The notes: generated by a model from the sequence alone, not told the origin. Positions 24,329 to 54,201 are shown, numbered from the stretch's first letter. The stretch: 55,690 bases of DNA from Holosporales bacterium (GCA_031266385.1 JAISBC010000045.1:1-55690), one strand, 5' to 3'. Translations and numbers: made by a program.

Positions 24329-24334
24329 AATATG

Positions 24335-24350: not shown

Positions 24351-24417
24351 TGGTTTCATCCATTGAATATGGTGTTAATTAGGCATGGTAAAATGTTGTT
24401 GGTAAAACTTGATCGAA

Positions 24418-24426
24418 TGTGGATAA
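24418..24426. promoter_or_regulatory. perfect DnaA-box 9-mer
   Basis: TGTGGATAA is the reverse complement of TTATCCACA. It lies in the 307-nt tRNA-Leu/gatC intergenic region. Only one perfect copy was seen there. Confidence 0.3.
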
Positions 24427-24562
24427 CTATCGGTATGTGAGTATTTCTGTGATCAAAGATGAGTGTATAATATCAGAATTAACAACTTTTTGAGACTTGT
24501 GTCTGGATATATCAGGTGCTACCATGAGCTCCTCTCGTTAAGGTGTTCGAATTGAGGGATTC

Positions 24563-24850
24563 GTGATTGGTGACAAAGATCTGGATAAGGTGTGTAAATT
24601 AGCAAAAATAGAGATTAGTGATGATAATCGAGATGAGTTTTTGAATAAACTGAATTCAATTTTTGATTGGATAAATCAATTGCGTGAGATTGATGTATCT
24701 AGTATCGATGATTCTGGATTATTGGCGGAGAATTCAGATTTTTTGGAGAGATCTGATGATCGGTCGTTGACGGGCTCCAGGGAGACTCTGATGAAGAATA
24801 CAAAGTTTCAGAAGTTTGGTATGTTTTGTGTTCCGAAGGTTGTCGATTGA
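24563..24850 (+). CDS. gatC: Asp-tRNA(Asn)/Glu-tRNA(Gln) amidotransferase subunit C
   Basis: 95 aa; DLDKVCKLAKIEISDDNRDEFLNKLNSIFDWINQLREIDV is the GatC pattern. GTG start. Confidence 0.85.
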   Translation: MIGDKDLDKVCKLAKIEISDDNRDEFLNKLNSIFDWINQLREIDVSSIDDSGLLAENSDFLERSDDRSLTGSRETLMKNTKFQKFGMFCVPKVVD

Positions 24851-24859
24851 GGATAGATT

Positions 24860-26764
24860 ATGCGATTAATTATAATCTCTGAGAGTGGCTCAGATGGCTA
24901 TGGAATTGATGATGGTGCGTCGGCGTTTGATTTGGCCGTAAAGTTAGGTTGCAAGAAGAGCGCTATCGCCGCCGAAATTAACGGAATTAAATCAGATCTC
25001 TCTACAAAACTTAAAGAAAATGATTCAGTATTGTTTATAAATTATTCAGATTGTGATGGTCTGTCGATATTGAGGCACAGTACTGCCCATGTTTTGGCGA
25101 AGGCGTTATTGGAAATTGATGAGACATCCAAGTTGGCGATTGGGCCCGCGATAAGTGATGGGTTTTATTATGATGTTTTAAGTACTCGGATTTTTTCGAC
25201 TGATGATCTCGAGATGATAGAAGGTAAAATGCGTCACGTGATCGATTCTAAGTTAAAATTTGAGAAGTCGATGATGAAAAAATCAGATGCAATTAAGTTG
25301 TTTGAGGCGATGGGGCAGGATTTTAAAGTAGAGTTAATTGATGGTATTGCCGATGAATTTGTTGGGATTTATAGATTAGGTGATTTTGTTGATTTGTGTA
25401 GAGGTCCTCACGTTCCGAGTACGTCTTATATTTCGGTGGATGCGCTGAAACTGACGTCGGTAGCCGGGGCTTATTGGCGAGGAGATAGTTCGAAGGCGGT
25501 TTTACAACGGATTTATGGAACGGCGTTTCCAACTCGCCGGGAGATGGAGTCTCATTTCGTATTTTTATCGGATGCCAAGGCGAGGGATCACAGAAAGATT
25601 GGTCAGGAATTGGAAATATTTCACATAGATGATCATGCTCCGGGTAATATTTTTTGGCTAAAAAATGGGACGATTCTATTTAATCTCGTAAAAAACAAGG
25701 TAGCTGCGATTGCTGAGAAGTATGGCTATTTTTTTGTGCAGACTCCGCAATTATTGGATAAGTCTTTGTGGGAGATTTCCGGACACTGGGAAAAATTTAG
25801 AGAAAATATGTATGTAGTCAATGATGACTGCGATAATACGACGATGGCGATAAAGCCGATGAATTGTCCGGGTCACATCATAGTTTACAAAAATGGGCCA
25901 GTGAAAAGCTACAGGGATTTACCGATTAGGATGGCAGAGTTTGGATTATGCCACAGAAATGAGCCATCTGGATCTCTTCACGGCCTCATGAGGATTAGGG
26001 CTTTTATGCAGGATGATGGTCATGTTTTTTGCTCTTCCGATCAGATCGGGACTGAAACGCAGAATTTTTGCGATGCTTTGCAGGAATTGTATAATGTTTT
26101 TGGTTTTACCGATATTGTCGTCAAATTTTCGGATCGTCCAGAGAAGAGGGCTGGATCAGATGAAGTTTGGGATATTGCTGAGAAATCACTCAAAGATGCC
26201 GCTGATGCTGCTGGGTTGGATTATACGGTAAATCGCGGAGAGGGGGCATTTTATGGGCCGAAGTTGGAGTTTGTTCTAAAGGATAGTCTCGGAAGAGAGT
26301 GGCAATGTGGTACCTTACAAGTGGACTTTGTTTTGCCGACTAGATTTAACACTTATTACATAGATCGAAATGGAAAAAAGCAGACTCCAGTTATGTTGCA
26401 TAGAGCAATCGTCGGTTCGTTGGAAAGATTCATAGGTATTTTGATAGAGCACTATGCCGGTAAATTTCCGTTTTGGCTTGCTCCGGTTCAGATTGTTATT
26501 GCGAGCGTAACGGATGAGTCAGCTGAGTATGCGAAAGATGTTTTTACTAGATTGAGGGATCATGGTTTTAGAGTGATTCTGGATATAGAGAATGAAAAGA
26601 TCACATATAAAATCAGGGAGCATTTTGTGCAGAAGGTTCCGTTTATTGTTGTTGTTGGGAAAAACGAAGCGCAAAACGAGACTGTGAGTGTGCGTGCATT
26701 AGGATCGGATGATACGAAGGAAGTGAGTGTTCTTGATATGTTTTCGTATTTTAGCGTAATGTGA
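24860..26764 (+). CDS. thrS: threonine--tRNA ligase
   Basis: TGS domain, editing-domain HSTAHVLA, class II motifs (FRENMY..., RDLPIRMAEFGLCHRNEPSGSLHGLMRIRAFMQDDGH, GAFYGPKLEF), and a C-terminal anticodon-binding domain. Confidence 0.97.
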   Translation: MRLIIISESGSDGYGIDDGASAFDLAVKLGCKKSAIAAEINGIKSDLSTKLKENDSVLFINYSDCDGLSILRHSTAHVLAKALLEIDETSKLAIGPAISDGFYYDVLSTRIFSTDDLEMIEGKMRHVIDSKLKFEKSMMKKSDAIKLFEAMGQDFKVELIDGIADEFVGIYRLGDFVDLCRGPHVPSTSYISVDALKLTSVAGAYWRGDSSKAVLQRIYGTAFPTRREMESHFVFLSDAKARDHRKIGQELEIFHIDDHAPGNIFWLKNGTILFNLVKNKVAAIAEKYGYFFVQTPQLLDKSLWEISGHWEKFRENMYVVNDDCDNTTMAIKPMNCPGHIIVYKNGPVKSYRDLPIRMAEFGLCHRNEPSGSLHGLMRIRAFMQDDGHVFCSSDQIGTETQNFCDALQELYNVFGFTDIVVKFSDRPEKRAGSDEVWDIAEKSLKDAADAAGLDYTVNRGEGAFYGPKLEFVLKDSLGREWQCGTLQVDFVLPTRFNTYYIDRNGKKQTPVMLHRAIVGSLERFIGILIEHYAGKFPFWLAPVQIVIASVTDESAEYAKDVFTRLRDHGFRVILDIENEKITYKIREHFVQKVPFIVVVGKNEAQNETVSVRALGSDDTKEVSVLDMFSYFSVM

Positions 26765-26770
26765 GTTATT

Positions 26771-27436
26771 ATGAAAATTGGTGGCCTTTTGAAATTTTCT
26801 GTTCTAGATTATCCTGGCAAGTTGTCATGTGTTGTCTTTTGCCAAGGATGTTTTCTTAGATGTACTTATTGCCACAATCCAGAGTTTCAGCCCTGCGAGG
26901 CGAGCGCTGGCGTCGATTTTCAGGAGTTTTTGGATTTTTTAAAATCGCGTTCTGGATGTCTTGATGCTGTTGTATTTAGCGGTGGGGAGCCGTTATTGCA
27001 AACTGACTTGATTCAGGTTATTGAGATCGTGAAAGAGCTTGGTTTTTTTGTTGGGATTCACACTTCTGGTGTTGTCCCAAATATGTTCAAGAAGGTAGTA
27101 TCTTTAGTAGACTGGATTGGTTTTGACATTAAAACTGTATTTCGCAAGTATGATATTGTTACTCAGTTTCAAGGCTCTGGTTTACTTGTAAAAATAGGCC
27201 TAGAGATTCTGTTGAATTCTGGTGTTAGCTATGAGATTAGGACAACGTATGATTCGAGATTTATTTCTCAAGAAGACGTTCTTAAAGTCGCAGAGATATT
27301 GCAAAAATTAGGCGTGCGAGAGTGGACGATCCAGGAGTGTGTAATTCGCGATACTGATGAAGCGTTGTTACTACCGGACAAAAATGTAGTAGAAGAGGCA
27401 TCCAAGTTAGTTAGAGTTAACTTAAGACATCAATGA
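26771..27436 (+). CDS. radical SAM activase of the NrdG2 (anaerobic RNR-activating protein-like) type
   Basis: FSVLDYPGKLSCVVFCQGCFLRCTYCHNPE (CxxxCxxC), VVFSGGEPLLQ, HTSG, DWIGFDIK, YEIRTT. I recognise this pattern as the TIGR02495-type family. Confidence 0.7.
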   Translation: MKIGGLLKFSVLDYPGKLSCVVFCQGCFLRCTYCHNPEFQPCEASAGVDFQEFLDFLKSRSGCLDAVVFSGGEPLLQTDLIQVIEIVKELGFFVGIHTSGVVPNMFKKVVSLVDWIGFDIKTVFRKYDIVTQFQGSGLLVKIGLEILLNSGVSYEIRTTYDSRFISQEDVLKVAEILQKLGVREWTIQECVIRDTDEALLLPDKNVVEEASKLVRVNLRHQ

Positions 27437-27963
27437 TATTATCATGTTTTATCAGGAAAAATACATTCCACGTGGAACATTCGCAATTTTCTTACATATA
27501 TAGAGTTGAAAGTAAGAATGATCTTGGAGACAATGTTGTGAATTTTTTGCATGATACATTATACAACTGTGATTATGGCGATATTACCGAATTGGTGTTG
27601 CAGTCTGATCCATTGCCATTTACTTGCTCTAGAACTGTTTACTCAATAGCAAAAGGGGTTCAGTTATCAAATAAAAATGTAAAAATTACTTTTGTTTCCG
27701 GTTTTTTAACATATTTTGGTATTGTTTCGCAGTGTGTGGATCATGGAGTCATGGTGATTCCATTTATGGGTGGCAAATTTTTTGCATGCAGATATGACAG
27801 TAATGGGTTAATGGATGTAGCTGTACGGTCTTTCGGGGATATTGATGGCGCGATTTATGTAGATGATTACATTAATTCTGATACTAATTTAGCGAAAAGG
27901 CAGAGAGAAGTGCTTAGCGCTGACATTGCTTGTGATAGTTTGTCTCATGTAAGGGTTATGTGA
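27433..27963 (+). CDS. hypothetical protein, possibly a degenerate TsaB (YeaZ)
   Basis: 176 aa, ATGA-coupled to the preceding gene and located directly upstream of rimI (the usual tsaB-rimI order). GDITELVLQSDPLPFTCSRTVYSIAKGVQLSNKNVKITFVSGF loosely parallels the TsaB segment d-i-a-v-x-x-GPGSFTGLRIG-x-x-x-AKGLA...p-l-x-g-V-S-S-L. Confidence 0.35.
   Translation: MILSCFIRKNTFHVEHSQFSYIYRVESKNDLGDNVVNFLHDTLYNCDYGDITELVLQSDPLPFTCSRTVYSIAKGVQLSNKNVKITFVSGFLTYFGIVSQCVDHGVMVIPFMGGKFFACRYDSNGLMDVAVRSFGDIDGAIYVDDYINSDTNLAKRQREVLSADIACDSLSHVRVM
27464..27479. promoter_or_regulatory. parS-like site
   Basis: The minus strand reads TGTTCCACGTGGAATG, 14/16 to the TGTTCCACGTGGAACA parS variant. The core TTCCACGTGGAA is a perfect 12-bp palindrome. 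Confidence 0.5.
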
Positions 27964-27981
27964 GATATTTAATGTTCGCAG

Positions 27982-28434
27982 TTGATGAAGATTAGTATTA
28001 GAAGATTGTCCATTAAAGACCTGCGTGCCTTAAAAATATTTTATACGAGGAGCGCATGTTCTTATTACATATCTGATATGTCGTTTGCTAACTATTTGAT
28101 GCTGTCTCAGTATGTTGTGATGGCTGCCATAAACGTGAATGGGGTTATTTTGGGATATATTATATGCTTAGTGGTAATTGATGAAGCTGATGTAGTATAT
28201 TTGTGTGTTGATGATAAGCACAGGTGTTGTGGAATTGCGACTCAAATTTTCAAGTATTTTATAAATAGTGTTTCTGATTTAAAGAGAGTTCACTTAGAAG
28301 TGAATGTAGATAACGTTAGAGCCATAAATTTTTACAAAAGAAATGAATTTAAAATTATTCGTATTCGCAAAGCGTACTCAAATAGTAATAATTTTTACGA
28401 AATGGTGATGTGTAAAACGCCGAATGCAGATTAA
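27982..28434 (+). CDS. rimI: GNAT N-acetyltransferase, RimI-like
   Basis: 150 aa; the acetyl-CoA motif region VDDKHRCCGIATQIFKYF and NVRAINFYKRNEF fit GNAT. Position after a tsaB-like gene. Confidence 0.6.
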   Translation: MMKISIRRLSIKDLRALKIFYTRSACSYYISDMSFANYLMLSQYVVMAAINVNGVILGYIICLVVIDEADVVYLCVDDKHRCCGIATQIFKYFINSVSDLKRVHLEVNVDNVRAINFYKRNEFKIIRIRKAYSNSNNFYEMVMCKTPNAD

Positions 28435-28507
28435 TATGGTGTTTTTTCGTGTTGTGGAGGTTCAAAAAATTTGTTATCATGTATGTAGTGTTTGTCTCGA
28501 AATTTAG

Positions 28508-29098
28508 GTGGAGGAAGTGGATTCAGATTCTACTATAGATGAGTATGTTCGTCTGTTGGATAGTTGGAATTCGAAAATGAATTTAGTTCGGTCCGATGGT
28601 GCGCTTGATATCGTGGACAGACACGTTAGGGATAGTCAGCAAATTTGTAATTACATCGATTTACGAAGTGCTGTTTTAGATGTCGGAAGTGGAGCAGGAT
28701 TTCCTGGGGTAATTTTATCCATTTGTGGTTTTGAAAGAGTGATTTTGTGTGAAAATAACTTTAAAAGGTCAACCTTCCTGAACGATGTAAAAGAAAGGCT
28801 CGAACTTAAATTTGACATACTTAGTGAGAGCGTGTATAAGCTTCGTGTCGATGATTGTGTTTCACGTGGAATATCATCAGATGTTACGATGGTGTCTAGA
28901 GCGTTTGGTTCCTTAGTGGAATTGATGACTATTATGCATATGCTTGAAATAAGGAATGGTGTATTTCATAAGGGTAGAAATTATTCAGCAGAGGTTCAAG
29001 ATGCTGGTAAGAAGTTTGAATTTGATCTACAGACAGAAAAAAGCGCAACAAGCAATGACGGTGTGATAGTACTTGTCTCTAATCTCGAGAGAAAATGA
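28508..29098 (+). CDS. rsmG: 16S rRNA (guanine527-N7)-methyltransferase
   Basis: WNSKMNLV...RHVRDS...DVGSGAGFPGVILSI is the GidB/RsmG pattern. Immediately upstream of parA-parB. Confidence 0.85.
   Translation: MEEVDSDSTIDEYVRLLDSWNSKMNLVRSDGALDIVDRHVRDSQQICNYIDLRSAVLDVGSGAGFPGVILSICGFERVILCENNFKRSTFLNDVKERLELKFDILSESVYKLRVDDCVSRGISSDVTMVSRAFGSLVELMTIMHMLEIRNGVFHKGRNYSAEVQDAGKKFEFDLQTEKSATSNDGVIVLVSNLERK
28858..28873. promoter_or_regulatory. parS-like site inside rsmG
   Basis: TGTTTCACGTGGAATA, 13/16 to TGTTTCACGTGAAACA (mismatches at positions 12, 15 and 16); the first 11 nt are exact. Confidence 0.5.
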
Positions 29099-29880
29099 TG
29101 GCAGTTATCGTATCTGTTGCTAATCAAAAAGGTGGAGTAGGAAAAACTACAACAGCTGTTAATCTAGCCACAGCTCTTGCAGCCATTGGAAAACGCGTGC
29201 TACTCGTAGATTTGGATCCGCAAAGCAATGCCACGACTGGATTGGGAGTATATTCAGGAACAATGAATACAAGCTATGATCTCTTCGTTAGAGGGATTAC
29301 ATTGTCGGAATCGATGGTTTGTACTAAAATTCCAGGCCTATCACTGATTCCAGCAAGTATTGATCTGGTTGGTGCAGAGATAGAATTAGTCCAGACCAAT
29401 GATCGTGAGAAAATATTGCGAAACTCTATCGATCCGTATATATCCATGTTTGATTATATAATAATAGATTCTCCGCCATCTATGGGGATTTTGACCCTTA
29501 ATGCGCTAGTGGCGGCTGATGGGGTTTTGATTCCGTTGCAATGTGAATACTATGCGCTTGAAGGATTGAGTTATTTATTGGGATCAATTGCTCGTATCAA
29601 ATCAACGAGCAATCCTACGCTGCAAGTTTTTGGAGTTGTACTAACGATGTTTGATAAGAGAAGTGCGTTGTGCCTCTCGGTTGTCAACGATGCAAGGCGC
29701 CATTTGCAAAAAATTGTATTCGATAGTGTTATTCCGAGGAATGTAAAGATTGCGGAGGCGCCATCGCACGGTAAACCAGTTTTACTGCATGATGTTAAGA
29801 GTATTGGTTCAATGGCGTATATGACGCTAGCAAGGGAGTTTTTAGCTAAAGAAAGGAGTGGGGTATGGAACAAAAACTAG
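29095..29880 (+). CDS. parA: chromosome partitioning ATPase ParA/Soj
   Basis: Deviant Walker A NQKGGVGKTTTAVNLA, DLDPQSNAT, IIIDSPPS. Confidence 0.95.
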   Translation: MMAVIVSVANQKGGVGKTTTAVNLATALAAIGKRVLLVDLDPQSNATTGLGVYSGTMNTSYDLFVRGITLSESMVCTKIPGLSLIPASIDLVGAEIELVQTNDREKILRNSIDPYISMFDYIIIDSPPSMGILTLNALVAADGVLIPLQCEYYALEGLSYLLGSIARIKSTSNPTLQVFGVVLTMFDKRSALCLSVVNDARRHLQKIVFDSVIPRNVKIAEAPSHGKPVLLHDVKSIGSMAYMTLAREFLAKERSGVWNKN

Positions 29881-30794
29881 GTCGTGGATTGTCTGCTTTG
29901 TTGGGAGATGGATTGATGCCTGAAGCCCTGAAAAAATCTTCATCGCCAAGAAGCCTCGGGATTGATCTGATCGAATCAAACGAAAATCAACCACGTAAAT
30001 TTTTCGACGAAGATTCCATAGCAGAACTAGCCGAATCAATTGCTAAGCACGGGATATTGCAACCAATAATTGTTAGAAAAAAAGATGAAAGTGGCGAAAA
30101 TTATAAAATAGTAGCTGGTGAAAGAAGATGGAGAGCAGCTAAATTAGCTGGTTTCTCCGAGATTCCGGCACAGATAGTTGAATGCGATGATGCTGAGGTC
30201 GTGACTTTAGCGCTCATAGAAAATATCCAACGAGAGGATCTGAATCCAATCGAAGAGGCAGAAGCTTTAAAAGAGTTGATGAGTAGCTGCGGATGTCGTC
30301 AAGAAGATCTGGGAACAATGATAAGCAAAAGTCGTAGCTACGTAGCGAATGCCCTCAGATTGTTGGCCCTGTCGAGCAGGATCCAAGAATTGATTAGAAC
30401 AGGGAGGATATCGGCAGGGCACGGAAAGTGCCTGATTGGGCTTGTACAGGCCGATAGATTGGCCGAAGATGCGGCGCAATACGGCTGGAGCGTGAGATAT
30501 CTGGAAAAAATTGTGCAATCCATTAAGCGTGGAGAGTTACCGGGAGCGGACAGGCCAGGAAATAGCCGAATGGATATTAATTTTGATAGCAATGAAGCTA
30601 ACGTGACGCAAGAAGCAGCCGAGATTTCAGTTCGTGTAGCAGAAGCCCTGGGAGTTGAGACCAAAATACAATCGAATCGTCGTGGAGGATATATAATCCT
30701 TTCGTGTAAATCATACCAACAGTTGGAGGAACTGATAGGAAAATTGCTGCAAATAGCAGATTTAACTGGCGCCTGTGTTAGATCGGAGGTATAA
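29865..30794 (+). CDS. parB: chromosome partitioning protein ParB/Spo0J
   Basis: LGRGLSALL, NENQPRKFFDEDSIAELAESIAKHGILQPIIVR, GERRWRAAKLAG, and an HTH region. Overlaps the parA end. Confidence 0.95.
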   Translation: MEQKLGRGLSALLGDGLMPEALKKSSSPRSLGIDLIESNENQPRKFFDEDSIAELAESIAKHGILQPIIVRKKDESGENYKIVAGERRWRAAKLAGFSEIPAQIVECDDAEVVTLALIENIQREDLNPIEEAEALKELMSSCGCRQEDLGTMISKSRSYVANALRLLALSSRIQELIRTGRISAGHGKCLIGLVQADRLAEDAAQYGWSVRYLEKIVQSIKRGELPGADRPGNSRMDINFDSNEANVTQEAAEISVRVAEALGVETKIQSNRRGGYIILSCKSYQQLEELIGKLLQIADLTGACVRSEV

Positions 30795-36232: not shown

Positions 36233-37177
36233 TCATTCTCCTTCTATTTCTCGATCTTTACACAAAAACAGGGGAATAACGAATACCGATATCATAGCGA
36301 TGGATAGGGCACAAGTCATCGGCCAATCTAAATTGTTGAAAAATTCTGTCCATAGAATTCTTCCGAAAGTTACAGAGCCTGCTCCACCAAGGAGCTCGGG
36401 AATAACAAATTCCGCGAGTGAGGCCGTTCCGACCATTAAGCATCCGGTCTTTAGTCCATTAATAGATATCGGTACGATTAATGTCCAGAAGGTTCTGGAT
36501 ATGCTACACCCAAGATTCCACGCCGATTCTATACATGATCTATCGACCTTATCCAAAGCAGAATATATCGGAAATATCATCAATGGTAGATAACAGAATA
36601 TTAGTCCAATACACACCATACAGTAATTACCGATAAAATGAATTGGTTCATCGATTAATCCGATTTTGATGAGGAAGTTATTGACTATTCCATGGGCACT
36701 CAACATGTTGATCCATGAGTATACTCTGATCAAAAATGATGTCCAGAACGACAATGAAACTAGTAATAATAGGGGAGTACGCAGCCCTTCGCGGGTACAC
36801 CGTATTCCATACGCCATCACAAAGCCGAAGGCGGCACACGTGACGGTCGTAATAAAACTGAGCGTCACAGAATTGACGAATGCATGTGCATAATAGGAAT
36901 CGCTCATGATAGTAATATAATTCTGTATATTGAGCGTAATCTCGATAATATTATTCGCGGACCATTTAAAGATTTCGGAAAATGGAGGAATGCCAAATAC
37001 TGCGTTCGCGAAACTAATTTTTAAGATCACCATGACGGGGATTATGAAGAACAAGAAGAGCCACGCAAGCGGCAATAATGCCAAGAAAAACTTCATGTTC
37101 TTCATGCTTTTATATAGCATGCTACCCTTTATCGTCTTTAAGATCTTCGGGATTCCGGGTAATTCTTCCAAGCTCAT
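36233..37177 (-). CDS. potB: ABC transporter permease, PotB (spermidine/putrescine)-like
   Basis: 314 aa with six TM segments. The EAA-loop region CIESAWNLGCSISRTFWTLIVPIS is present. Overlaps the upstream ATPase gene by 4 nt. No potC or potD follows. Confidence 0.65.
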   Translation of the reverse strand: MSLEELPGIPKILKTIKGSMLYKSMKNMKFFLALLPLAWLFLFFIIPVMVILKISFANAVFGIPPFSEIFKWSANNIIEITLNIQNYITIMSDSYYAHAFVNSVTLSFITTVTCAAFGFVMAYGIRCTREGLRTPLLLLVSLSFWTSFLIRVYSWINMLSAHGIVNNFLIKIGLIDEPIHFIGNYCMVCIGLIFCYLPLMIFPIYSALDKVDRSCIESAWNLGCSISRTFWTLIVPISINGLKTGCLMVGTASLAEFVIPELLGGAGSVTFGRILWTEFFNNLDWPMTCALSIAMISVFVIPLFLCKDREIEGE

Positions 37178-38362
37178 GTTGCCAACACCATGCTATTTTC
37201 CGCCCGCCAGAACAAGTATACCTCATCTTCCCACTGAAAATTTCTGTCGTCGAGTCGTAGGAGATTAGGAAGGGTTGCGATTACGGTCTTCCCCGATGCT
37301 ATCCGCACGTAGTATGTCGATATATTTCCAAGGTATGCGATTTCTTTGATGGTCCCTTTGACCCAGTTCCTCGGGTATGCTGGTCTTAATGTCGAGATCA
37401 TGATTTTTTCTGGCCTGACGGCGTAGATTACTCTGGTCCCAACGGGAACCGTCCCGGCATGAGTAGCGTTGCAAACGCAGCCGATCTCTGAGGATTCTAT
37501 TAGAACTTGATCAAGCTGGTGTTCCAGAACGATGCCCTCAAAAAAATTGACCTTCCCGATAAATTCAGCGACATATTTAGAATTCGGGAATTCATAAATG
37601 TCATGAGGAGTTCCTATCTGCCTGATTTTACCTTCTTCCATGACGGCCATTCTGCTCGACATCGTCATGGCCTCTCCCTGATCGTGAGTCACCATAACGA
37701 ACGTGACCCCAATCCGTTCCTGAATATTGACTAATTCGAATTGGGTCAGCTCTCTCAAACTCTTATCGAGGGCGGCCATCGGTTCGTCTAGCAGGAGCAA
37801 CTTAGGCTGCTTAACCAAACATCTCGCCAGGGCAACTCGTTGTTTTTGCCCGCCGGATAATTGGCCTGGGAAACGGTGCTCGAGACCCGAGAGATTGACC
37901 AATCCAGTGATTTCTCTAACCTTATCATTGATCAGAGACTTCGCTAGTTTATCCTGCTTGAGACCGAAGGCTATGTTATCGAAGACGTTGAGATGCGGGA
38001 AGATGGCGTAAGACTGAAACATCATGTTGACGGGGCGCTTAAAAACGGGAATTCCCGTGATATCTACGCCATCAATAAATATTTTCCCGGACGAAGGCTT
38101 CTCGAATCCGGCCAAAATCCTCAGGAAAGTTGTTTTACCGCACCCGGAGCTTCCGAGGAGGGAGAACAACTCATTCTTGTAGATTGAGAGAGAGACGTCC
38201 CTGAGTGTGACGACTCCTCCAAATGATTTCGAAACATTCTTGACGACGACGAAGGGCTCGGCCCCTGGATCCTGCCAAGCTTCTCGGTGCTGAATAGTGA
38301 GCAGGGAGCCCTCCAGATAAAAAAAACGACGGACACCATACGACGATGTTGGATGGTAGCAT
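37174..38362 (-). CDS. potA: ABC transporter ATPase, PotA-like; 5' end unresolved (frameshift at homopolymer or non-canonical start)
   Basis: Walker A GSSGCGKTT, Q-loop MMFQSYA, signature LSGGQKQRVALAR, Walker B LLLLDEP, H-loop VTHDQ, C-terminal TOBE-like domain. The frame stays open and conserved upstream of the track start (EPFVVVKNVSKSFGGVVTLRDVSLSIYKNE) up to TAA 38362-38364, with no ATG/GTG/TTG in it. ATG 38362-38360 lies one frame off, upstream of the A8 run at 38319-38326. Confidence 0.75.
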
Positions 38363-38466
38363 TAGTTAGATCATGGGTCAATCCTGGCGATATCAAGGAA
38401 TCTTTCAACAGTAGTTAGAGATTGAGTTTTTGAGGATTAGAGTGGGAACAAATACAATAAATTTAC

Positions 38467-38495
38467 TTACAAGAGCACGAGAAATATGCTACAAT
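38467..38495 (+). promoter_or_regulatory. sigma70-like promoter for the giant ORF
   Basis: TTACAA-N17-TACAAT, ending 35 nt upstream of ATG 38531. Confidence 0.45.
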
Positions 38496-38530
38496 CAAAA
38501 TATTGAGCACACAAGTTACAAAGAGCATAG

Positions 38531-41500
38531 ATGATTCTAGGCAAAGGGCGCAATAAAAAGGATGTGACTGTTCATAAGATATGTACAATAATCCTCTGGC
38601 CAATAATCATCGTTCAGACAATCCAAACCGAAGTCTACGCATCAGGGCAGCGCCCCAAGGTAGCCGCACCCAAACAACATAGGGAAACATTCACCCTTCC
38701 CGACGCATGGAGATTAAAAATTCAAGACCCAAAATCTGCATTGAAGGCAATTCCTATTCTCAACGCAGCATTTGGGGGGCAAGCGCTCACAGCGCAAAAT
38801 GTCCCTGTACTACACGCCATGCTTAATCCTGCGGATTTCATATTGGCCGCTAAGCATCACGACCCTGACAGCGAATGGGGCGTGCTTGCTCGGCCCGACG
38901 CTAGCGCCATCTTGTCCGATCCAAAAACCCCAAATAGAGTATCTCTTCGTCGATTTGCGATAATACGAGAACTGGTTGCCCAGAATCCATCCTTAGGGGG
39001 CGGAAGGATGACGGTATCACAGTTCTTGGATTTATTGATGAGACCAGCACATCCAAAAGTATCACAACAGATATGGGCGGATTTGTTATCTCTAACGTCT
39101 ACTTGGCTGGGATCAACAGTAGTAGCAAACTTTAGTGCTCGCCTTGGATTATCTGATCCAAGCACAAGCAAGGTCGCAGACGAAATAGCAAGAAATCCTT
39201 TTGTAAGACACGCAGCGCTAGAATTTTTCACTCCAGGTGTATTTCTGTTAAACCCAGAGCTAAGCAAAGCGTCAGAAGATAAAACACCAATTAAGGTACT
39301 AGACTTCGACAGAATAGCAAGAGTCCCCAAGATACTATACGAAAAGTATAAGGCGCTTCCACTTAACAAGGACAACATTTACAGAGCTGCGGCCATCCTG
39401 GATCCCGTATCCCTCGCCACAGCATACGGTAGGCTACCAGATACGCTAGCTCAACTTGGAGACCCAATAAAGCCTGCTACATGGGGACAATGGGAGAAAC
39501 TAGCCTGGCCCACTCTATTCCAAGCCATACAAGAAAACAAGATTTCCAGATCATTAATAGACAGCGCGTTGAGGCCAGCTGTTCCCGGATGGCTTCCCAT
39601 ATTTATCGAGGCCAACGACGGCACCTACACCATAGGAGCATTAACAGAAGCACTATCAGATCACTCCAGCAAACCACAGTACACTCAAATCCGCGAAAAA
39701 ATAACACAAGCCATGGAAAAAACCCCAAGCCTAGCAGGGGTATATCCCCCTAGGCCCACCCAAGTACCAATGGGTGTCCCGGGACACCAGGTAATCGCCC
39801 CCGATAATCCAGCAGAGCTCACGGATGTCAGACAGCAAATGAGGCAAGATCCCGGTTCCCAACAGCTGGTAATGGAGTGCCAGTACCCAGGGATCAAGCA
39901 CATAAAAAGGGACTGGGCCCCCATTCCGCCTCCTCCGCCCTATCAGGCTCCTAAAGATCCTCCTCAAATAGGGCTTTCAAACATCCCAATTGGGGCCCGA
40001 GGTCGTATCAAAAGAGTACCTGAACTAATGCTCAAAGCATATGGGGCCAAACCGATGGGCGAAGTTCCATCAAAGGCCGTACTAGCAATTATGTTCCCCG
40101 ATCAAACTCTGAATGCGGTTCAACAACTAAGGACGGACGCTGGTTTCACCTGGGGTGACTACGTTGCCATTGATTCAATAACAATGGAAGCAATAGAGTC
40201 CAAATTCCCCAATCATCAGATTCCTCTCAGGCTTGACAGGGAAGCAGTGGGATACGGGGACTACCCGGTCACAATTCACTCCCTGAAGGAATTTATAGAT
40301 TCACTAGTCAATCCTTACAAGAATCCCATAAGATCAACAACTCTGTTACAAATCATCCTCCGGCAAATCAGGAAGTCCAGTGAGCCAGAAAGGATGAATC
40401 AACTTAGGAGGCAGTACGGACTAAGTAGTGATCATCTCTACGACATGGCTCGCGAAATCGTTCAAAATAGGCAAAAAATGAAACAGTTTTACGGGGAGTT
40501 TGCTCCAGGATTGTTGCCAATGCTGGCCAAGACTCCTATCCCCCAAACCAACCCAGAAAAAGAGGTAAATCCTCGGAATCCCACACGAACAGCGTTCCTA
40601 TTGCAAAGGGTTCTTGAAAGAATCGGGAGTTTGGGAGAGTCAGGCAGGATGAATCAAATTAGGCAGCGGTACCACCTCCGTAGTGATAGACCATACGACA
40701 TGGCTCGAGAACTAATTCAAGACAAGGACAGACTGACACAATTTTGTGGGGAGTTCGCTCCCGGCCTCTTGCCAGATCTGTCCCGTCCAACTAACTTCAG
40801 CCACGGCCCAGCAAGAGCGATGCCTCCGCAGATACCTATCACCGCTCACGCAAACGAGCTGAACACGGCATTAGTGTCTGATGATTCACAGGTTCCTCAT
40901 CTGGCCAGCACCATCCTGGAACATTACGGAAATCGCGATATAACCCCAGCAACATCCATAATCGTAGCGGCGCTAGTTAGTCCAGAACTAGTCCAATCAA
41001 TCGTAAAACCGACTCCTTTTGGTAAAAAACCCTGGGCATCGCTGCTTACAGATGGGCATCACGCTACACGGCTCTTAAGTAAGTTATTTAAACACCAACT
41101 GCAATGGATTCCCTTGTTTGCAGAACAAGCCGGGAAACAAGTTGGTGGCGTCAAAATCAAAGAATTAGTTCAGGCCCTTACTGTGCCTTCAGCCAATAGA
41201 GAAAAGCACGATCCAATAATTTTTAAGATGACACGAGCAATAGCCCAAAAGCAAGACAGGAAAGTTGAGCAATTTTTTCACAAAATTAAAGAAGAAAATC
41301 CGTGGACTGATCCAGATGTGGAAGTAAGCCTTAAATTCAGAGATTCTAAGTCATGCAGAGCCTTTCGGGACAGATATGCTCCTGGCATTCAGGCAATGCA
41401 AGACAGGGAAGTTCGCGACAGACAAGAAGGAAAAAGTTATCGGTTTAGACCGGTACTAAAGTCAGAAGATCCGAACATTGAGCAATTCTCAAGAGCGCTA

Positions 41501-44500
41501 AGCACAATCGGAATCGAAGATCCCGTCCAAATTCTCCGTCTTCCAGCTGTAGTCATTGAAACATTCGGTAAGACACACATGACTGAGAAAGCACTCGGAT
41601 TGCTCGTGACCATAATGTACCCAGAATCAACTCGAGTTGCTCTCGGCGCAATTATTGGCAATGATCGTAGTAAGTGGGAAGAATTTTTTGTCGAATCGAC
41701 AAGATCAGCTGAAGTGATCAAAGAGATTACCACGGCATTTTCAGGGCCTGAATTACAGATAGTCCAAAATTTATTAAGTTGTACTTCCGGCAGTCCAACT
41801 CTTAACGAGCTAATCACCGGGCTAACGCGACCAGAAGTGGCGCAAGAAAAGTCAGTCTCCATGGTATCTCGGATGCTAAATGCAATTCAACTCGAGGTTG
41901 GTATTGAACCAATCCGAGCATTTGCAGTCCATAACACCATTGCTCACAAGTCGTCAGCCGAGCTAGCACAAGCGCTAGCAAAGCACAAACCCACACTGAT
42001 TGAATTCTATAGGCACTTTGTCCCAGGACTGGTAAATTTGATTGATCCGTCAGACACAACTCCTCACCAAACATATTTTGACGTGATTTCGCAGAGTAAG
42101 GGAGATGCCCCCCCTACTAGCGCGAGAAAGAGAATAACGTTTCCGACGAGCCCCGTCCTCGCGAATTATCCAGGTCCGATTATCGGCAACCTGAAGAAAG
42201 CAAGAGTCAAAGATCCAGAAATGGCATCCCGAGTATCATTGCACATCCAAGAGCGATTCAAAGACCGACAGGTAGGCGAGGTATCCCCAATTATGTTGGA
42301 AGCGATGTTGAACCCAGGAACAATTACCAGCACCGAGGACCGTAGCATTCAGCAAGGGTTCCCGTACACGTGGGACGAACTTGTTCAGATAGCTATCCAA
42401 ATAGATCCAGCTGTCGTGCCGCCCCCAACTAGCCTCGGAGCCCTGGTTAGTGCTCGGATGCACCACTTCGTCCGGCAGCTCCCAGCAGACATAACATTCG
42501 GACAGGTGTACAATTCATTAACATATCCTTCTTGGAACGAGGAATGTTCGAATACCGTATGGTCAGCGATGGCCAAAGCTTTCCATTCTCGTGGCAAAAC
42601 ACCGAAATTTATTAAGGACCACAAATTATCCTGGCCACTCAGTAATGCAGACATACGAGTCATCATGTCCCAACCAGAGGTTCGCCAAGATGTCCTACGA
42701 GCATGGGCTCCTGGTCTGCAACAGGACGACCAAGTAGTATCTAGGCCATCGCATCTTCCTACGAGAAGACTGGAACAAATCCAAATTCAAGATCCAGTTT
42801 ATCTTCCAGAAATTTCCAGGATTGTCCTTGAAACGTACGGATCCGATCAAATGAACGAAGCGGCTATTCCAGTCTTAGCAGCAATAATTGATCCAAAAAC
42901 TATCCAAATATACACTACTCGCACTAGAACACCGCCGTACCACTGGCAGTCATTTATCAACGACTATCGGAATTCAGTTCCACCTCGAGGTATCGAAAAG
43001 CCTTGCGCAGATCTCTTGGATCGCATGAGGTTATTCATCATGAAATGTAACGAAATTAGTCCAGAGAGAACAATCGATCAAGTCATAATGGATCTCACTC
43101 ATCCTATGTTGGATCCAAGACAGACCGCACAAACTCTTAGGGCATACCACGAGTCCCTCGATCTAAGTGACGAATATCTCGCCAGCAACCTTCAAGACGT
43201 CCTTGGAGAATTAGGCGCAGGTTCAGATCTGGTGCTGCGTCTAATCGGGAGCCCACGGTACGCAGACTACCTTGAAGGGGTTGCACCTGGATTGGTGCAG
43301 CTGACCAGAGCTAGAGAGAACAGGTGGCTCAATATTACCCAGCGGGAAAGGGATCGACTTCAGGAATGGATCGAAGGTATAGGAGGTTCTCCATCATCCG
43401 ATACAGAAACGAGCGACAGACTCCTGGCAAAGAAAGTTAGGCTCCCATTCCCCAACGGTTTCACTCAGGCGATTCGACAACGATACGGATCGGTACAAAT
43501 TGAGCCAAGTCAAGGTTTAAAGCTGATGTCCATCCTAGATCCAGACGGTCTTAAGGGCGCCATAGCTAAGAGTGGTCAACCCGAATTGAGTTGGCGACAG
43601 GCACTCGACACCACTGATCAAATATTTGTGAAAGAAGTAGTCTCAAAACTACCCATAAGATCAAAATCTATTCACGCATTTATCACTAGCATACGGCATG
43701 ATCCACCACCAACAATATTACAAATAGTTCAAAGTCTGGAAAACCCCAGAGCAAACCCAGCCCTCGCCACAAAAATATGGGACACATTATTTGGATCAGT
43801 ATCAGGTGTATTCGAGAAATTCCGGTCCTTATATGCCTCATTCCAAGAAGCTACCCCCATCACGTTGGCCAAAGCAGTAGTTGCAGAGGATTCAGTCAGA
43901 CGTGCTGCCATACGAGAATTCTTTCCTGCCTTAGATCAAAGCCCACAGTACAGAATAGGCCAAGCCACCACGTTTCAGCAGCTGGTGGAAGCCGGCATAC
44001 TTCATCCAGATCAATACGTTAGTAAGGAACTTGTCCCCATCCTCCTAAATTTGATAGATTCGCACCAATTTTACTTATTAGTTAGGTCAAACTCTAGGCT
44101 CCTTGATACAAAAGGGGCAGCTCTAACTTTTCAAGAACTCCAAGAGCTTTGGGTGAGTGCATCGGTAGTAAAGGAACAGATCATTCGAGGCTTGTCAGGT
44201 GAGAAAAGGGACCTCGTCAAACAAACCGAAATCGCAATAGAAGCCGGAAGGCGGCAAACTGTGAAACAATGGTTGGAACCATTCCCAACAACGATAGAGC
44301 CAGAAAGAGGGCTGCCGAGACCAATAAATCTAATGGAAGCACAAATGGATAGCCCAGACTTCGATCACCCGCAATTCGGCGAGAAAGCATATCTCGCACT
44401 CAGCAAGCAAGTATATGAGGCGAATAAGGACAAACCACTCGAAAACGTTCCACCCGCGATGGTAATGCTCATGTTCGATCCAGCAGGATACAGGGAATCA

Positions 44501-44890
44501 ATGAAACGATTTCAACATATTACCTGGCAAGAATCTCTTTCTCAGGTGCAAAAGATGCCCATCGACAGAATTTCTTCGACCACAGAGTTGGGTGCATTCC
44601 TGAAATTTCTTCAGGCAATAAAGCAATCCACCATATTCCAAAAGCTACAAACAGCTCCCGTCAGCAAACTGGTTACCCTTGTAGTAAACCCCAACTACGT
44701 TCAGAAGTCGACGATTCTTCTGTTGGCGCTATGGGAGGATGTCAAAACAGCAATACTCACGAAAGAACAAATTCCGACACAACCCAAAAAGATCACCATA
44801 GCAGATATGAAGGCCCAAGTAGAGGATCCGGCCCGCTACAAGGCTTATCTAGCCGAACAGTTCCCTTTTATCGGGAGGGTTTTAGAATAA
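38531..44890 (+). CDS. giant secreted modular repeat protein (2,119 aa), family unknown
   Basis: Uninterrupted 6,360-nt ORF. Sec-type signal MILGKGRNKKDVTVHKICTIILWPIIIVQTIQTEVYA/SG. Nine clear and one degenerate ~155-aa modules, each with the ordered landmarks [ILV]xxx[YF]G, hydrophobic-xP, and [FYW]xPG[LIV]. No catalytic or known repeat signature recognised. Confidence 0.85.
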   Translation: MILGKGRNKKDVTVHKICTIILWPIIIVQTIQTEVYASGQRPKVAAPKQHRETFTLPDAWRLKIQDPKSALKAIPILNAAFGGQALTAQNVPVLHAMLNPADFILAAKHHDPDSEWGVLARPDASAILSDPKTPNRVSLRRFAIIRELVAQNPSLGGGRMTVSQFLDLLMRPAHPKVSQQIWADLLSLTSTWLGSTVVANFSARLGLSDPSTSKVADEIARNPFVRHAALEFFTPGVFLLNPELSKASEDKTPIKVLDFDRIARVPKILYEKYKALPLNKDNIYRAAAILDPVSLATAYGRLPDTLAQLGDPIKPATWGQWEKLAWPTLFQAIQENKISRSLIDSALRPAVPGWLPIFIEANDGTYTIGALTEALSDHSSKPQYTQIREKITQAMEKTPSLAGVYPPRPTQVPMGVPGHQVIAPDNPAELTDVRQQMRQDPGSQQLVMECQYPGIKHIKRDWAPIPPPPPYQAPKDPPQIGLSNIPIGARGRIKRVPELMLKAYGAKPMGEVPSKAVLAIMFPDQTLNAVQQLRTDAGFTWGDYVAIDSITMEAIESKFPNHQIPLRLDREAVGYGDYPVTIHSLKEFIDSLVNPYKNPIRSTTLLQIILRQIRKSSEPERMNQLRRQYGLSSDHLYDMAREIVQNRQKMKQFYGEFAPGLLPMLAKTPIPQTNPEKEVNPRNPTRTAFLLQRVLERIGSLGESGRMNQIRQRYHLRSDRPYDMARELIQDKDRLTQFCGEFAPGLLPDLSRPTNFSHGPARAMPPQIPITAHANELNTALVSDDSQVPHLASTILEHYGNRDITPATSIIVAALVSPELVQSIVKPTPFGKKPWASLLTDGHHATRLLSKLFKHQLQWIPLFAEQAGKQVGGVKIKELVQALTVPSANREKHDPIIFKMTRAIAQKQDRKVEQFFHKIKEENPWTDPDVEVSLKFRDSKSCRAFRDRYAPGIQAMQDREVRDRQEGKSYRFRPVLKSEDPNIEQFSRALSTIGIEDPVQILRLPAVVIETFGKTHMTEKALGLLVTIMYPESTRVALGAIIGNDRSKWEEFFVESTRSAEVIKEITTAFSGPELQIVQNLLSCTSGSPTLNELITGLTRPEVAQEKSVSMVSRMLNAIQLEVGIEPIRAFAVHNTIAHKSSAELAQALAKHKPTLIEFYRHFVPGLVNLIDPSDTTPHQTYFDVISQSKGDAPPTSARKRITFPTSPVLANYPGPIIGNLKKARVKDPEMASRVSLHIQERFKDRQVGEVSPIMLEAMLNPGTITSTEDRSIQQGFPYTWDELVQIAIQIDPAVVPPPTSLGALVSARMHHFVRQLPADITFGQVYNSLTYPSWNEECSNTVWSAMAKAFHSRGKTPKFIKDHKLSWPLSNADIRVIMSQPEVRQDVLRAWAPGLQQDDQVVSRPSHLPTRRLEQIQIQDPVYLPEISRIVLETYGSDQMNEAAIPVLAAIIDPKTIQIYTTRTRTPPYHWQSFINDYRNSVPPRGIEKPCADLLDRMRLFIMKCNEISPERTIDQVIMDLTHPMLDPRQTAQTLRAYHESLDLSDEYLASNLQDVLGELGAGSDLVLRLIGSPRYADYLEGVAPGLVQLTRARENRWLNITQRERDRLQEWIEGIGGSPSSDTETSDRLLAKKVRLPFPNGFTQAIRQRYGSVQIEPSQGLKLMSILDPDGLKGAIAKSGQPELSWRQALDTTDQIFVKEVVSKLPIRSKSIHAFITSIRHDPPPTILQIVQSLENPRANPALATKIWDTLFGSVSGVFEKFRSLYASFQEATPITLAKAVVAEDSVRRAAIREFFPALDQSPQYRIGQATTFQQLVEAGILHPDQYVSKELVPILLNLIDSHQFYLLVRSNSRLLDTKGAALTFQELQELWVSASVVKEQIIRGLSGEKRDLVKQTEIAIEAGRRQTVKQWLEPFPTTIEPERGLPRPINLMEAQMDSPDFDHPQFGEKAYLALSKQVYEANKDKPLENVPPAMVMLMFDPAGYRESMKRFQHITWQESLSQVQKMPIDRISSTTELGAFLKFLQAIKQSTIFQKLQTAPVSKLVTLVVNPNYVQKSTILLLALWEDVKTAILTKEQIPTQPKKITIADMKAQVEDPARYKAYLAEQFPFIGRVLE
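40337..40774 (+). repeat. in-frame tandem duplication inside the giant ORF (255-nt period)
   Basis: aa 603-663 versus aa 688-748, ungapped at an offset of exactly 85 aa, with 33/61 identical by hand (RMNQLRRQYGLSSDHLYDMAREIVQ...FYGEFAPGLLP versus RMNQIRQRYHLRSDRPYDMARELIQ...FCGEFAPGLLP). Confidence 0.85.
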
Positions 44891-45186
44891 AGTGCTCCGA
44901 ATTTACAGGCCGAGTGACACAACCCACAATAGCAACATTTCTTTGGGTCATATGTATGTTTACCTGGTGCATTGATCAGTATCGCGTGGCAAGGGCAGAC
45001 TTCGGAGCACATCCTACATCCGACACATTTATCGCTATCGTAAGTTAAAATCTTCCTGAATTTATCCGATCTCTGGATCCCCTTCAAATCCCTCGTCACC
45101 GGCTTTTTAAAGCAACATTTAAGCCCAATGAAAAGAGCTTTCAAAATATCGATAAGTAGTGCGTTTTTTAAAAATCGTTTAATCAT
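44845..45186 (-). CDS. 2x[4Fe-4S] ferredoxin-domain protein, shortened NuoI-like
   Basis: 113 aa. [18 protein letters not shown] resembles the NuoI N-terminus. Clusters [12 protein letters not shown] and [12 protein letters not shown] (final Pro replaced by Lys). Overlaps lepA by 8 nt, and its 3' end overlaps the giant ORF by 46 nt. Confidence 0.55.
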
Positions 45187-53118: not shown

Positions 53119-54201
53119 ATGAGTAAAATGATGAGCAAAAAATATAAGAGAAAACAATTGTTCAGTGCAGCAAAGAAGGGAATTCTTGTAATTCTCTTGG
53201 CCATGTCTACGGTCAGTTGGGCCTCTGACCATGATGAAGATCGGAGGGGTGAAAACCCAAATGGAAATCCAATTGTCCCACTTGGTCGAATCAATGCGAC
53301 ATTGCGGGCAGCATTAGAGGCAATGCCGTGGTTCTCCTTCGAAGACCCTTTCCGGAAGGTCCGACAGTTGTTTGTCAGCCCTTACGGATTTCCAGTTGCT
53401 AGAGCTAGCATTCGATTGATTGAGCAGCAAAAGGCCGCAACACAGCCAGGCATAGATTATTATACCAGATATGGCATGGCTGCAAGATTACCTACAGATA
53501 TAGATTTTGGATTGCTGCCATCTCTCGAACGGGAAGACGCTTTAAGAGTGTGCCCATATCTCGGTGACCAATTCTTTCGAGATCTACCACCTCAATTAAA
53601 GAACTTTTTCCACATAATAACGTTTGACCCTAATGCTACCCCTGAACAAATGCAGCATTTAGTACAAGAATTAACCCCATTCGCCATCCCGAACTCCCCA
53701 CGCCAGGTTACCAGCTTCTTCCTTTTAGAAAGATACTATCAAGAAAGGGCCATAGAACACGGTCTAGCCCTTCGCATCTTCCAGAGGCACTTCATGTGGT
53801 TAAGAGCCCAATACGAAGCTGGGTGCAGACATTACGTTAGGTCGCAATTCAGACCAGAAAGTCCGTTTGGGCAGTATTTACTCGAGGTACTAGGAGAGAC
53901 TGGATCGTTCGCAGCCCCCGCAGTCATAGCTTGTAGGAGGTTGATGAGCTTAACTCCCAACTACCAACCCTTCCACGAACTATCGGAGTTAGCACGTCAT
54001 GCTGCCGAATTATTTCACATCCGCCAAGATATTCTGGAAGCACAACTCACCAATCTCGCCAGATCAGCGAATCACTATCAAGCACAAAGACCAGATCCAT
54101 ACTCCTCAAGATCACGCTACTTCCATGGAGTCCCTGACAACAACTTCAGATATCCAGGAATCCAGGTCCGAGTAGACGACGTCCATCAAGAGCATCCCTG
54201 A
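53119..54201 (+). CDS. hypothetical secreted protein
   Basis: 360 aa. Signal peptide KKGILVILLAMSTVSWA/SD. Helical-looking, Pro/Gln/Arg/Phe-rich. C/A-rich sense strand like the giant ORF. No family recognised. Confidence 0.55.
   Translation: MSKMMSKKYKRKQLFSAAKKGILVILLAMSTVSWASDHDEDRRGENPNGNPIVPLGRINATLRAALEAMPWFSFEDPFRKVRQLFVSPYGFPVARASIRLIEQQKAATQPGIDYYTRYGMAARLPTDIDFGLLPSLEREDALRVCPYLGDQFFRDLPPQLKNFFHIITFDPNATPEQMQHLVQELTPFAIPNSPRQVTSFFLLERYYQERAIEHGLALRIFQRHFMWLRAQYEAGCRHYVRSQFRPESPFGQYLLEVLGETGSFAAPAVIACRRLMSLTPNYQPFHELSELARHAAELFHIRQDILEAQLTNLARSANHYQAQRPDPYSSRSRYFHGVPDNNFRYPGIQVRVDDVHQEHP

Follow-up and report, generated by a model that had tools for sequence, protein, structure and literature searches.

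Giant lineage-specific secreted proteins often mediate the handling of the host by intracellular or gut-associated bacteria. The type V autotransporters (rickettsial Sca among them) and the RTX/type I adhesins are large modular proteins that face the host, and in intracellular bacteria they are often restricted to one lineage, while the Ebh protein of Staphylococcus aureus, built of FIVAR-GA repeats, is a very large protein with a Sec signal, many tandem all-alpha modules and no enzymatic motif. Helical bundles of 120–170 residues, arranged as beads on a string, make up the talin rod, vinculin and alpha-catenin, which are binding scaffolds, and the short-period alpha solenoids and leucine-rich repeat (LRR) proteins consist of repeats of 24–47 residues. 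In Holosporales, the infectious form of Holospora obtusa contains periplasmic proteins, among them the 63-kDa PRP1 and an 89-kDa invasion-tip protein, which remain in periplasmic storage until they are exposed or are set free in the host nucleus; they are novel in sequence and at least one has a putative signal peptide (PMC9866348). We describe here a gene on a 55,690-nucleotide (nt) stretch of DNA from a Holosporales bacterium (GCA_031266385.1, JAISBC010000045.1:1-55690; the whole stretch is referred to as the window), whose open reading frame (ORF), at 38531..44890 on the + strand, had been singled out by a model working from the sequence alone (the original prediction). We infer that its 2119-amino acid (aa) product is a lineage-restricted, probably acquired protein that would be exported by Sec and would act as a non-enzymatic scaffold or adhesin, a reading to which we give a probability of about 0.55. 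It would belong to a known category, the large lineage-specific modular exported proteins of host-associated bacteria; the domain itself appears to be new, and no new mechanism is claimed. To our knowledge, nothing has been reported on giant secreted host-handling factors in the uncultured gut clade of Holosporales, for which this gene provides a concrete candidate with defined domain boundaries and confident models.

Among the described systems, the H. obtusa proteins are the nearest biological precedent, coming from the same order, being novel in sequence and having a putative signal peptide. They are, however, much smaller and not described as modular, and PRP1 has a D5_N DNA-binding domain whereas Pfam recognises none in the large protein. 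The resemblance lies in lifestyle and in the logic of export and not in family, with no true match in the libraries searched, although these were not confirmed to include Holospora proteins. With Ebh, the protein shares the plan of a giant single chain of helical-bundle modules, but the Ebh modules are ∼126 aa long, near-identical and assigned to Pfam FIVAR/GA, whereas those described here are ∼175 aa long, 12–21% identical and without a Pfam match; compared with Ebh, it also lacks a C-terminal cell-wall or membrane anchor. FIVAR/GA profiles gave no match in either whole-protein or per-module Pfam scans. The talin and vinculin bundles have 4–5 helices, whereas 10–11 are predicted for each module here, and there is no sequence similarity; talin R7R8 does appear in the Foldseek list for the Protein Data Bank (PDB) but is not significant (E 2.8, template-modelling (TM) score 0.14–0.15). 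In contrast to the autotransporters, the protein has no C-terminal beta-barrel and no passenger beta-helix by Pfam and NCBIfam, and is predicted to be all-alpha; in contrast to the RTX adhesins, it has neither RTX nonapeptides/HemolysinCabind nor Ig-like repeats, and an N-terminal signal is present. At E-values up to 10, no TPR, Sel1, ankyrin, HEAT/ARM or LRR family was shared by more than one module. The protein fails membership in the autotransporters, the RTX adhesins, the lipoproteins, the short-period solenoids and LRR proteins, the FIVAR/GA giants and the talin/vinculin bundles, and only in outline does it resemble the rod-like giants made of helical bundles.

The ORF is uninterrupted, with zero internal stops and its stop codon at 44888–44890, and codes for a mature product of ∼234 kDa with an isoelectric point of 9.0. 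As the original prediction had stated, no other ORF of the window comes near it in length, its frame being open over 6.36 kb, and its product is poor in Cys (0.4% of residues). By our own arithmetic, the chance probability of a 2119-codon open frame at the observed composition is ∼e^-100. The database gene call (P0001, 2108 aa) begins at a GTG at 38564, 11 codons downstream of the ATG at 38531; the latter is preceded, 5 nt upstream, by the Shine-Dalgarno-like sequence AAAGAG. Promoter-like hexamers are also found upstream of the ORF, in numbers within the shuffle expectation and without excess. We conclude that the ORF is a true and undamaged gene, restricted to its lineage, of a gut-associated alphaproteobacterium of the Holosporales type.

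Since whole-protein self-BLAST proved uninformative (hits nested within the identity hit are discarded), the internal repeats were assessed by module-versus-module BLASTP and by leave-one-out hidden Markov models (HMMs), in which a model built from eight modules was scored against the ninth, with the best of 200 shuffles per module as the control. BLASTP returned collinear, in-register alignments across ∼175 aa, with E-values of 4e-8 for modules 3 and 5, 1e-6 for modules 5 and 7, 1e-5 for modules 4 and 7 and 1e-3 for modules 6 and 8. All nine full modules were recovered by the leave-one-out models at 18.5–65.8 bits, while shuffled modules peaked at 2.9–7.3 bits, so that the significance of the repeats, a check that the original prediction had proposed, is settled in its favour. 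The weakest copy, module 2, was recovered through its N-terminal part but was aligned end to end by the full nine-module model. The repeat period is ∼175–230 aa, and the protein terminates with its ninth full module, whose 174 residues are helical. In addition to the full copies, a half copy follows module 3 (Table 1) and duplicates the C-terminal four-helix part of that module with 55% aa and 68% nt identity.

These data revise the count and the size of the modules proposed earlier. Of the 'about ten' copies, nine are full copies and the half copy is additional; the tenth, a degenerate copy placed at about aa 1802–1957, was tried at aa 1806–1945 and rejected (HMM −1.1 bits, hhalign E 0.28). 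That segment, whose tie to the modules is undetectable by these comparisons, is best treated as a ∼140-aa spacer. The module is also longer than the ∼155 aa originally given, measuring ∼175 aa once the conserved 'DP' helix ahead of the first landmark is counted. The landmarks themselves were located accurately: all 28 motifs occur at the listed residues (landmark 1, [ILV]xxx[YF]G-like; landmark 2, a hydrophobic-xP turn; landmark 3, [FYW]xPG[LIV]), and the distance from landmark 1 to landmark 3 is indeed 149–158 aa in eight copies and 183 aa in the second. The FAPGLLP motif at aa 742 falls within the half copy. An internal duplication within the module was considered and rejected, the N-terminal and C-terminal halves aligning with an hhalign E-value of 0.28.

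The nine copies are 12–21% identical (mean 16%), and adjacent copies are no more alike than distant ones. Only three columns are invariant (P41, W60 and P173 in the numbering of module 6), none of them Asp, Glu, His, Cys, Ser or Lys, and the columns common to at least six of the nine copies hold D, E, G, A, T, L, P and G. Good conservation is seen for Pro, Trp, Gly and Leu, which sit at helix ends and turns. Because only these are well conserved and no column of Asp, Glu, His, Cys, Ser or Lys is invariant, a non-enzymatic role is the most likely one. The helix pattern and the Pro/Trp/Gly landmarks kept over nine copies are a weak sign of constraint, and a further weak sign of selective constraint comes from the half copy, whose dN/dS relative to module 3 is ∼0.40, a rough value (72 codons, dS 0.85).

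The statement that the protein has no recognisable family holds in every library consulted. Pfam, NCBIfam, PHROGs and PADLOC gave no match anywhere in the 2119-aa protein, and when the nine modules were scanned individually at E-values up to 10, five unrelated single-module matches were obtained, with no family common to more than one module. PDB sequences matched neither the full protein nor the module profile. A word-indexed search of 5.8 billion clusters returned only the protein itself, and an exhaustive hmmsearch with the nine-module profile, which the original prediction had suggested as a check, returned from 1.84 billion representatives (standing for ∼15 billion public proteins, eukaryotic ones included) the protein itself and two artefacts, without a true relative. 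The artefacts, P0002 and P0003 (E 2e-16 and 3e-5), were rejected as giant relatives: they are Cys-rich proteins of near-identical tandem repeats, whose scores add up 11–21 domains, none above 4.7 bits, that cover 33–51 profile positions. A profile search against proteins with many near-identical repeats can thus yield E-values down to 2e-16 from domains of ≤4.7 bits, a trap for any rerun. Pattern scans of GTDB genome contigs, JGI metagenome contigs and IMG/VR, which reach close relatives only, were without match, as was tblastn of the protein against GenBank phages and PLSDB plasmids. Six-frame translations of 160 fetched related loci and of the rest of the window contained no module relative; one tblastn match, in locus L003 (E 0.14), was rejected as it sits inside BamA. 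As judged by these comparisons, the module is an undescribed domain without a relative in any public collection searched. The result poses an evolutionary puzzle, in that nine copies at ∼16% identity exist within one protein, yet no relative is found among representatives of ∼15 billion public proteins.

To obtain structural models, AlphaFold2 was supplied with the alignment of the nine modules, with modules 5 and 6 as single-module targets. The model of module 6 has 10 helices (predicted local distance difference test (pLDDT) 81.9, predicted TM score (pTM) 0.82) and that of module 5 has 11 helices (pLDDT 86.3, pTM 0.83); both are all-alpha, with helices in shared alignment columns and a helix/non-helix agreement of 80%. 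Foldseek found no PDB match at E ≤0.001 for either model (best E 3.8 and 0.46), and for module 6, the one compared with the viral models of BFVD, the best E-value was 0.99; among the listed matches with the best E-values, TM scores were ≤0.24. The original prediction had named a hit to a Pfam or structural family as a check on its claim of an undescribed domain, and the claim stands: there is no Pfam family and no significant PDB structure match, and the domain is unmatched in every sequence or structure library tried. We conclude that the repeated unit, present in nine full copies and as one half copy, is, as modelled, an all-alpha domain of ∼175 residues with 10–11 helices.

The genes surrounding the ORF are ordinary. 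One flank holds potB, potA, acpP, fabF and pyk, and the other a 2x[4Fe-4S] ferredoxin gene (fdx), lepA, gapR, tatA, infB and nusA, while murein, clp, tig, thrS, gidB-parAB and other genes further off are ordinary alphaproteobacterial housekeeping genes as well. LepA is 94, 92 and 90% identical to that of three metagenome-assembled genomes (MAGs) named 'Holosporales bacterium' from termite guts, and 83–84% identical to that of further termite, roe deer and rumen MAGs; a metagenome scan with LepA returned nothing above 68% identity. The predicted products of the neighbour genes place the contig among the Holosporales MAGs of termite and ruminant guts. A gut clade of 'Candidatus Paracaedibacteraceae' that occurs in termites and other animals has been described in a review as uncharacterised (PMC11909080), and the origin of the contig fits that clade.

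The original prediction had the gene between ordinary housekeeping operons; this is correct for the flanking genes, but the gene itself lies outside the conserved backbone. The order tatA-gapR-lepA-fdx is common to the window and the relative MAGs, and the large gene is absent from all fdx-lepA loci recovered from them, LepA being up to 94% identical; in two relatives, fdx is followed by spoT and then by rseP and bamA, or by lpxK. Between the window and its closest relative (L001, contig JAITFF010000020.1 of MAG Nm470_bin96), blastn homology begins at 47476 and ends precisely at 44890, where the stop codon of the large ORF has its last base. The break falls within the last codons of the convergent fdx gene, where the ancestral end (FGAIKFKP, then stop) has been swapped for a different tail, the closest relative having yet another; fdx codes for 113 aa in the window versus 103 aa in L002 and L003. 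The replaced fdx C-terminus marks what we take to be the right edge of an island. In L001, the 659 bases after fdx (7033..7691) bear no relation to the window and contain no long ORF; their CpG observed/expected ratio (o/e) is 0.58 versus 1.09 for the remainder of the contig, which ends there. The fdx 3' end may be a recurrent insertion point. The edge of the island was mapped on the right side only, the potA region of the relatives not being among the recovered loci.

A gene seen on one contig might also be an assembly chimera, or a recently dead ORF that still looks intact, and the decay in nearby genes and a composition unlike that of the flanks are in keeping with this. We regard it as highly improbable. 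Bacterial core genes stand on both sides of the gene on one contig, the junction lies inside the last fdx codons, and the homology with the closest relative ends there too. The DNA of the gene has no tandem repeats that could mislead an assembler, and because of this the module array is not an assembly artefact. A dead gene, moreover, does not account for a 6.36-kb frame that has stayed open, for nine modules that retain their helix pattern and their Pro/Trp/Gly landmarks, for confident AlphaFold2 models or for the dN/dS of ∼0.4 of the half copy.

The composition of the large gene sets it apart from its surroundings, although its guanine-plus-cytosine (GC) content is unremarkable. Its relative synonymous codon usage (RSCU) correlates with that of 21 pooled core genes at 0.13, whereas each core gene correlates with the others at 0.38–0.81, and resampling the core codon pool to the amino-acid composition of the large gene (500 resamples) gave 0.90 on average and no value below 0.81. 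NCG makes up 14% of its Ala/Pro/Ser/Thr codons versus 30% in core genes (p = 1e-13), NNA codons as well as TAC, CAC, AAC and GAC are preferred, and its CpG o/e is 0.79 versus 1.04–1.42 in core genes. Relaxed constraint was considered as a cause of the low CpG but dismissed, since CpG is not depleted in the intergenic DNA that separates core genes: such spacers have a CpG o/e of mostly 1.08–1.46 (one of 0.94), compared with 0.42–0.70 for spacers beside orphan ORFs. Neither an integrase nor a transposase was found among the neighbour genes of the window, no transfer RNA (tRNA) gene lies within 14 kb of the large gene, and no donor of the island emerged from the searches of 1.84 billion representatives, phages, plasmids or IMG/VR. 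The atypical composition, the relatives' loci without the gene and the sharp boundary at 44890, taken together, lead us to conclude that the gene lies in an accessory, CpG-poor island of atypical codon usage that was probably acquired. As part of the accessory genome, the island would either have come from an unsampled donor or be evolving very fast.

The donor might have been a eukaryotic host (protist or animal) or an unsampled virus, in which case the CpG-depleted, A3- and C-ending codons of the donor would have been kept, the signal would work in bacteria and the protein would be a mimic of a host helical-bundle protein. The low CpG o/e, the avoidance of NCG codons, the preference for TAC, CAC, AAC and GAC, the sharp break in homology and the recurrence of the signature in other orphan ORFs could all be explained in this way, but a CpG-poor bacterial or plasmid donor accounts for the data equally well. 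Moreover, no eukaryotic or viral homologue was recovered from the library of representatives, in which eukaryotic proteins are included, or from BFVD, IMG/VR or the phage records; intron remnants are absent, and the DNA upstream of the gene has a Shine-Dalgarno-like site and hexamers resembling bacterial promoters. We hold a eukaryotic or viral capture to be very unlikely.

Five other ORFs of the window without a Pfam domain share the low CpG (o/e 0.57–0.83), namely 8054..8809 (−), 13309..14433 (+), 21449..22126 (−), 27433..27963 (+) and 53119..54201 (+). Four of them also correlate with the codon style of the large gene, the exception being 13309..14433, and the spacers adjoining three of the five are CpG-poor as well (0.42–0.62). 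By eye, 53119..54201, 8054..8809 and 13309..14433 have signal-peptide-like N-termini. Together, the CpG-poor orphan ORFs may constitute an accessory 'secretome' pool. Symbiont MAGs commonly contain orphan genes, and a CpG-poor signature shared by such ORFs suggests a route, by composition only, to an accessory and possibly host-directed gene set. In a more far-reaching version, the module would be a truly new fold founding an unsampled family of symbiont effectors, and the gene and the CpG-poor orphans (8054..8809, 53119..54201 and others) would be a mobile or fast-turnover 'secretome' pool inserted at recurring hotspots such as the fdx 3' end, with a eukaryotic host or its viruses as a possible source; we hold this to be decidedly unlikely.

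The N-terminus is that of a Sec substrate by inspection, as the original prediction had it, with a basic n-region, a hydrophobic stretch at aa 17–35 and V-Y-A followed by SG. The hydrophobic stretch has a mean Kyte-Doolittle value of 1.64, the second-highest of all 19-residue windows in the protein; the highest (aa 807–825, 1.66) lies inside module 4, a predicted soluble helical domain, and all remaining windows score ≤1.33. V-Y-A immediately ahead of Ser38 places small residues at −3 and −1, as for a substrate of signal peptidase I. A lipobox ([LVI][ASTVI][GAS]C) was not found: the only Cys in the first 40 residues, C18, follows H-K-I, and the residue at +1 after VYA is Ser. The N-terminus is consistent with a Sec signal peptide, a role as signal anchor also being possible.

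Under the reading that we favour, Sec would carry the protein over the inner membrane, and the signal peptide would be cut after Ala37. The mature protein would be a long chain of helical bundles, strung like beads, that lies in the periplasm or on the cell surface, or would alternatively be released outward through a type II system, and it would act as a binding scaffold or adhesin toward host or envelope structures and not as an enzyme. Type II secretion has been reported as typical of Holosporales (PMC11724238) and is present in the H. obtusa genome (PMC9866348; PMC11909080). Since there are no secretion genes in the window, the route past the inner membrane is a guess.

The same features would suit a structural protein of the envelope or periplasm without a direct host role, that is, a long helical spacer or scaffold inside the envelope, Sec-exported or signal-anchored. 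The h-region of 17–19 residues could span a membrane, no secretion genes lie nearby, and beyond the Sec-type N-terminus the protein has neither a signal for outer-membrane targeting or C-terminal secretion nor a barrel or lipobox. Envelope scaffolds, however, are normally kept among close relatives, whereas this gene is absent from the loci of the MAGs with 90–94% LepA identity and from all other searches, and it sits in a compositional island. We consider a purely structural role unlikely, and prefer that of an exported scaffold or adhesin.

Several observations weigh against the preferred role and origin. No secretion-system genes were found in the window, and the h-region of the signal, which was judged by eye, includes Gln and Thr and could serve as a membrane anchor instead. 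The AlphaFold2 models rest on a nine-row alignment of paralogous modules, and the putative new fold is established only relative to PDB and, for module 6, BFVD. Public data hold the gene on a single contig, whose assembly is thus not independently confirmed. Finally, composition is heterogeneous elsewhere in the window, the per-codon chi-square of thrS being larger than that of the large gene; because of such heterogeneity, the codon-usage case for a foreign origin leans mainly on CpG.

The positions of the features of the gene are collected in Table 1.

Table 1. Features of the large gene and of its immediate borders (nt positions in the window, aa positions in the 2119-aa product)
Feature	Nucleotides	Residues	Strand	Remarks
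Upstream non-coding DNA	38301..38530		+	Two sigma-70-like hexamer pairs (38430–38458, 38466–38495) and AAAGAG; CpG o/e 0.70
Putative Sec-type signal peptide	38531..38641	1–37	+	n-region KGRNKKD..HK, h-region ICTIILWPIIIVQTIQT, c-region EVYA, then SG; judged by inspection
Module 1	38708..39250	60–240	+	Leave-one-out HMM 34.5 bits
Module 2	39278..39910	250–460	+	Weakest copy, with insertions; leave-one-out HMM 18.5 bits, N-terminal part only
PPPPPY	39926..39943	466–471	+	Within Pro-rich linker aa 461–484
Module 3	39983..40525	485–665	+	Leave-one-out HMM 44.6 bits
Half copy	40568..40774	680–748	+	31 bits on profile positions 107–176
Module 4	40868..41401	780–957	+	Leave-one-out HMM 44.2 bits
Module 5	41498..42040	990–1170	+	Leave-one-out HMM 55.5 bits
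Module 6	42194..42730	1222–1400	+	Leave-one-out HMM 65.8 bits
Module 7	42773..43306	1415–1592	+	Leave-one-out HMM 46.8 bits
Module 8	43418..43945	1630–1805	+	Leave-one-out HMM 45.1 bits
Spacer, 140 aa	43946..44365	1806–1945	+	HMM −1.1 bits; hhalign E 0.28
Module 10 in the earlier numbering (ninth full copy)	44366..44887	1946–2119	+	Leave-one-out HMM 25.2 bits
2x[4Fe-4S] ferredoxin gene (fdx)	44845..45186		−	Convergent with the large ORF; last 15 codons overlap its 3' end (44845..44890, 46 bases)

Of the linkers between modules, which had been described as Pro-rich, only that at aa 461–484 truly is (38% Pro), the remaining ones having 3–16% Pro. The PPxY-type motif reported within it is exactly where it had been placed, but its significance does not hold up: by our own arithmetic, the single occurrence compares with ∼0.3 expected from composition, which is not above chance, and we attach no evidential weight to it.

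Two genes of the window show the damage that had been contrasted with the intact state of the large gene, and the contrast holds. The conserved N-terminus of potA (37174..38300, −) runs in frame ∼40 codons upstream of the first TTG (..FVVVKNVSKSFGGVVTLRDVSLSIYKNE-LFSLLGSSGCGKTT), and this stretch is without ATG, GTG or TTG, so that the start codon has been lost or is non-canonical. The MATE ORF (16802..17509, +) codes for 235 aa with a single MatE domain, and downstream of it a SpoU methylase is encoded on the opposite strand (17586..18026); because the DNA after the ORF encodes this methylase, the second half of the transporter is gone.

The stretch 24001..30000, which holds thrS, a radical SAM gene, a GNAT gene and gidB-parA-parB, has a very strong GC skew of +0.26 to +0.30 and third codon positions rich in G and T (for thrS, C at 0.11 and T at 0.39 of third positions). 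Its CpG is slightly below that of the rest of the backbone and is normal in the thrS region, which makes it a compositional oddity of another kind than that of the large gene. The gidB-parA-parB gene set is usually found near the replication origin.

Two of the CpG-poor orphan ORFs have further features. The product of 13309..14433 (374 aa) has a signal-like N-terminus, a long low-complexity region rich in Pro, Gln, Gly and Ala and a thioredoxin-like WCPHC motif, and has no Pfam match at E ≤1e-5. That of 8054..8809 (251 aa), for which the word-indexed search of 5.8 billion clusters returned no relative, contains a Pro-rich stretch and the segment VKAKAVEVFGNWECGAAEGVPAAIIVNIGMFREALAE, which hhalign aligned in register with module positions 16–52 (E 0.18); to judge from this alignment, it may be a small relative of the large protein. 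Beside this ORF, a 1.8-kb stretch without a convincing protein gene contains three tRNA genes (Lys-CTT, Glu-CTC and Pro-GGG) at 6815..7462.

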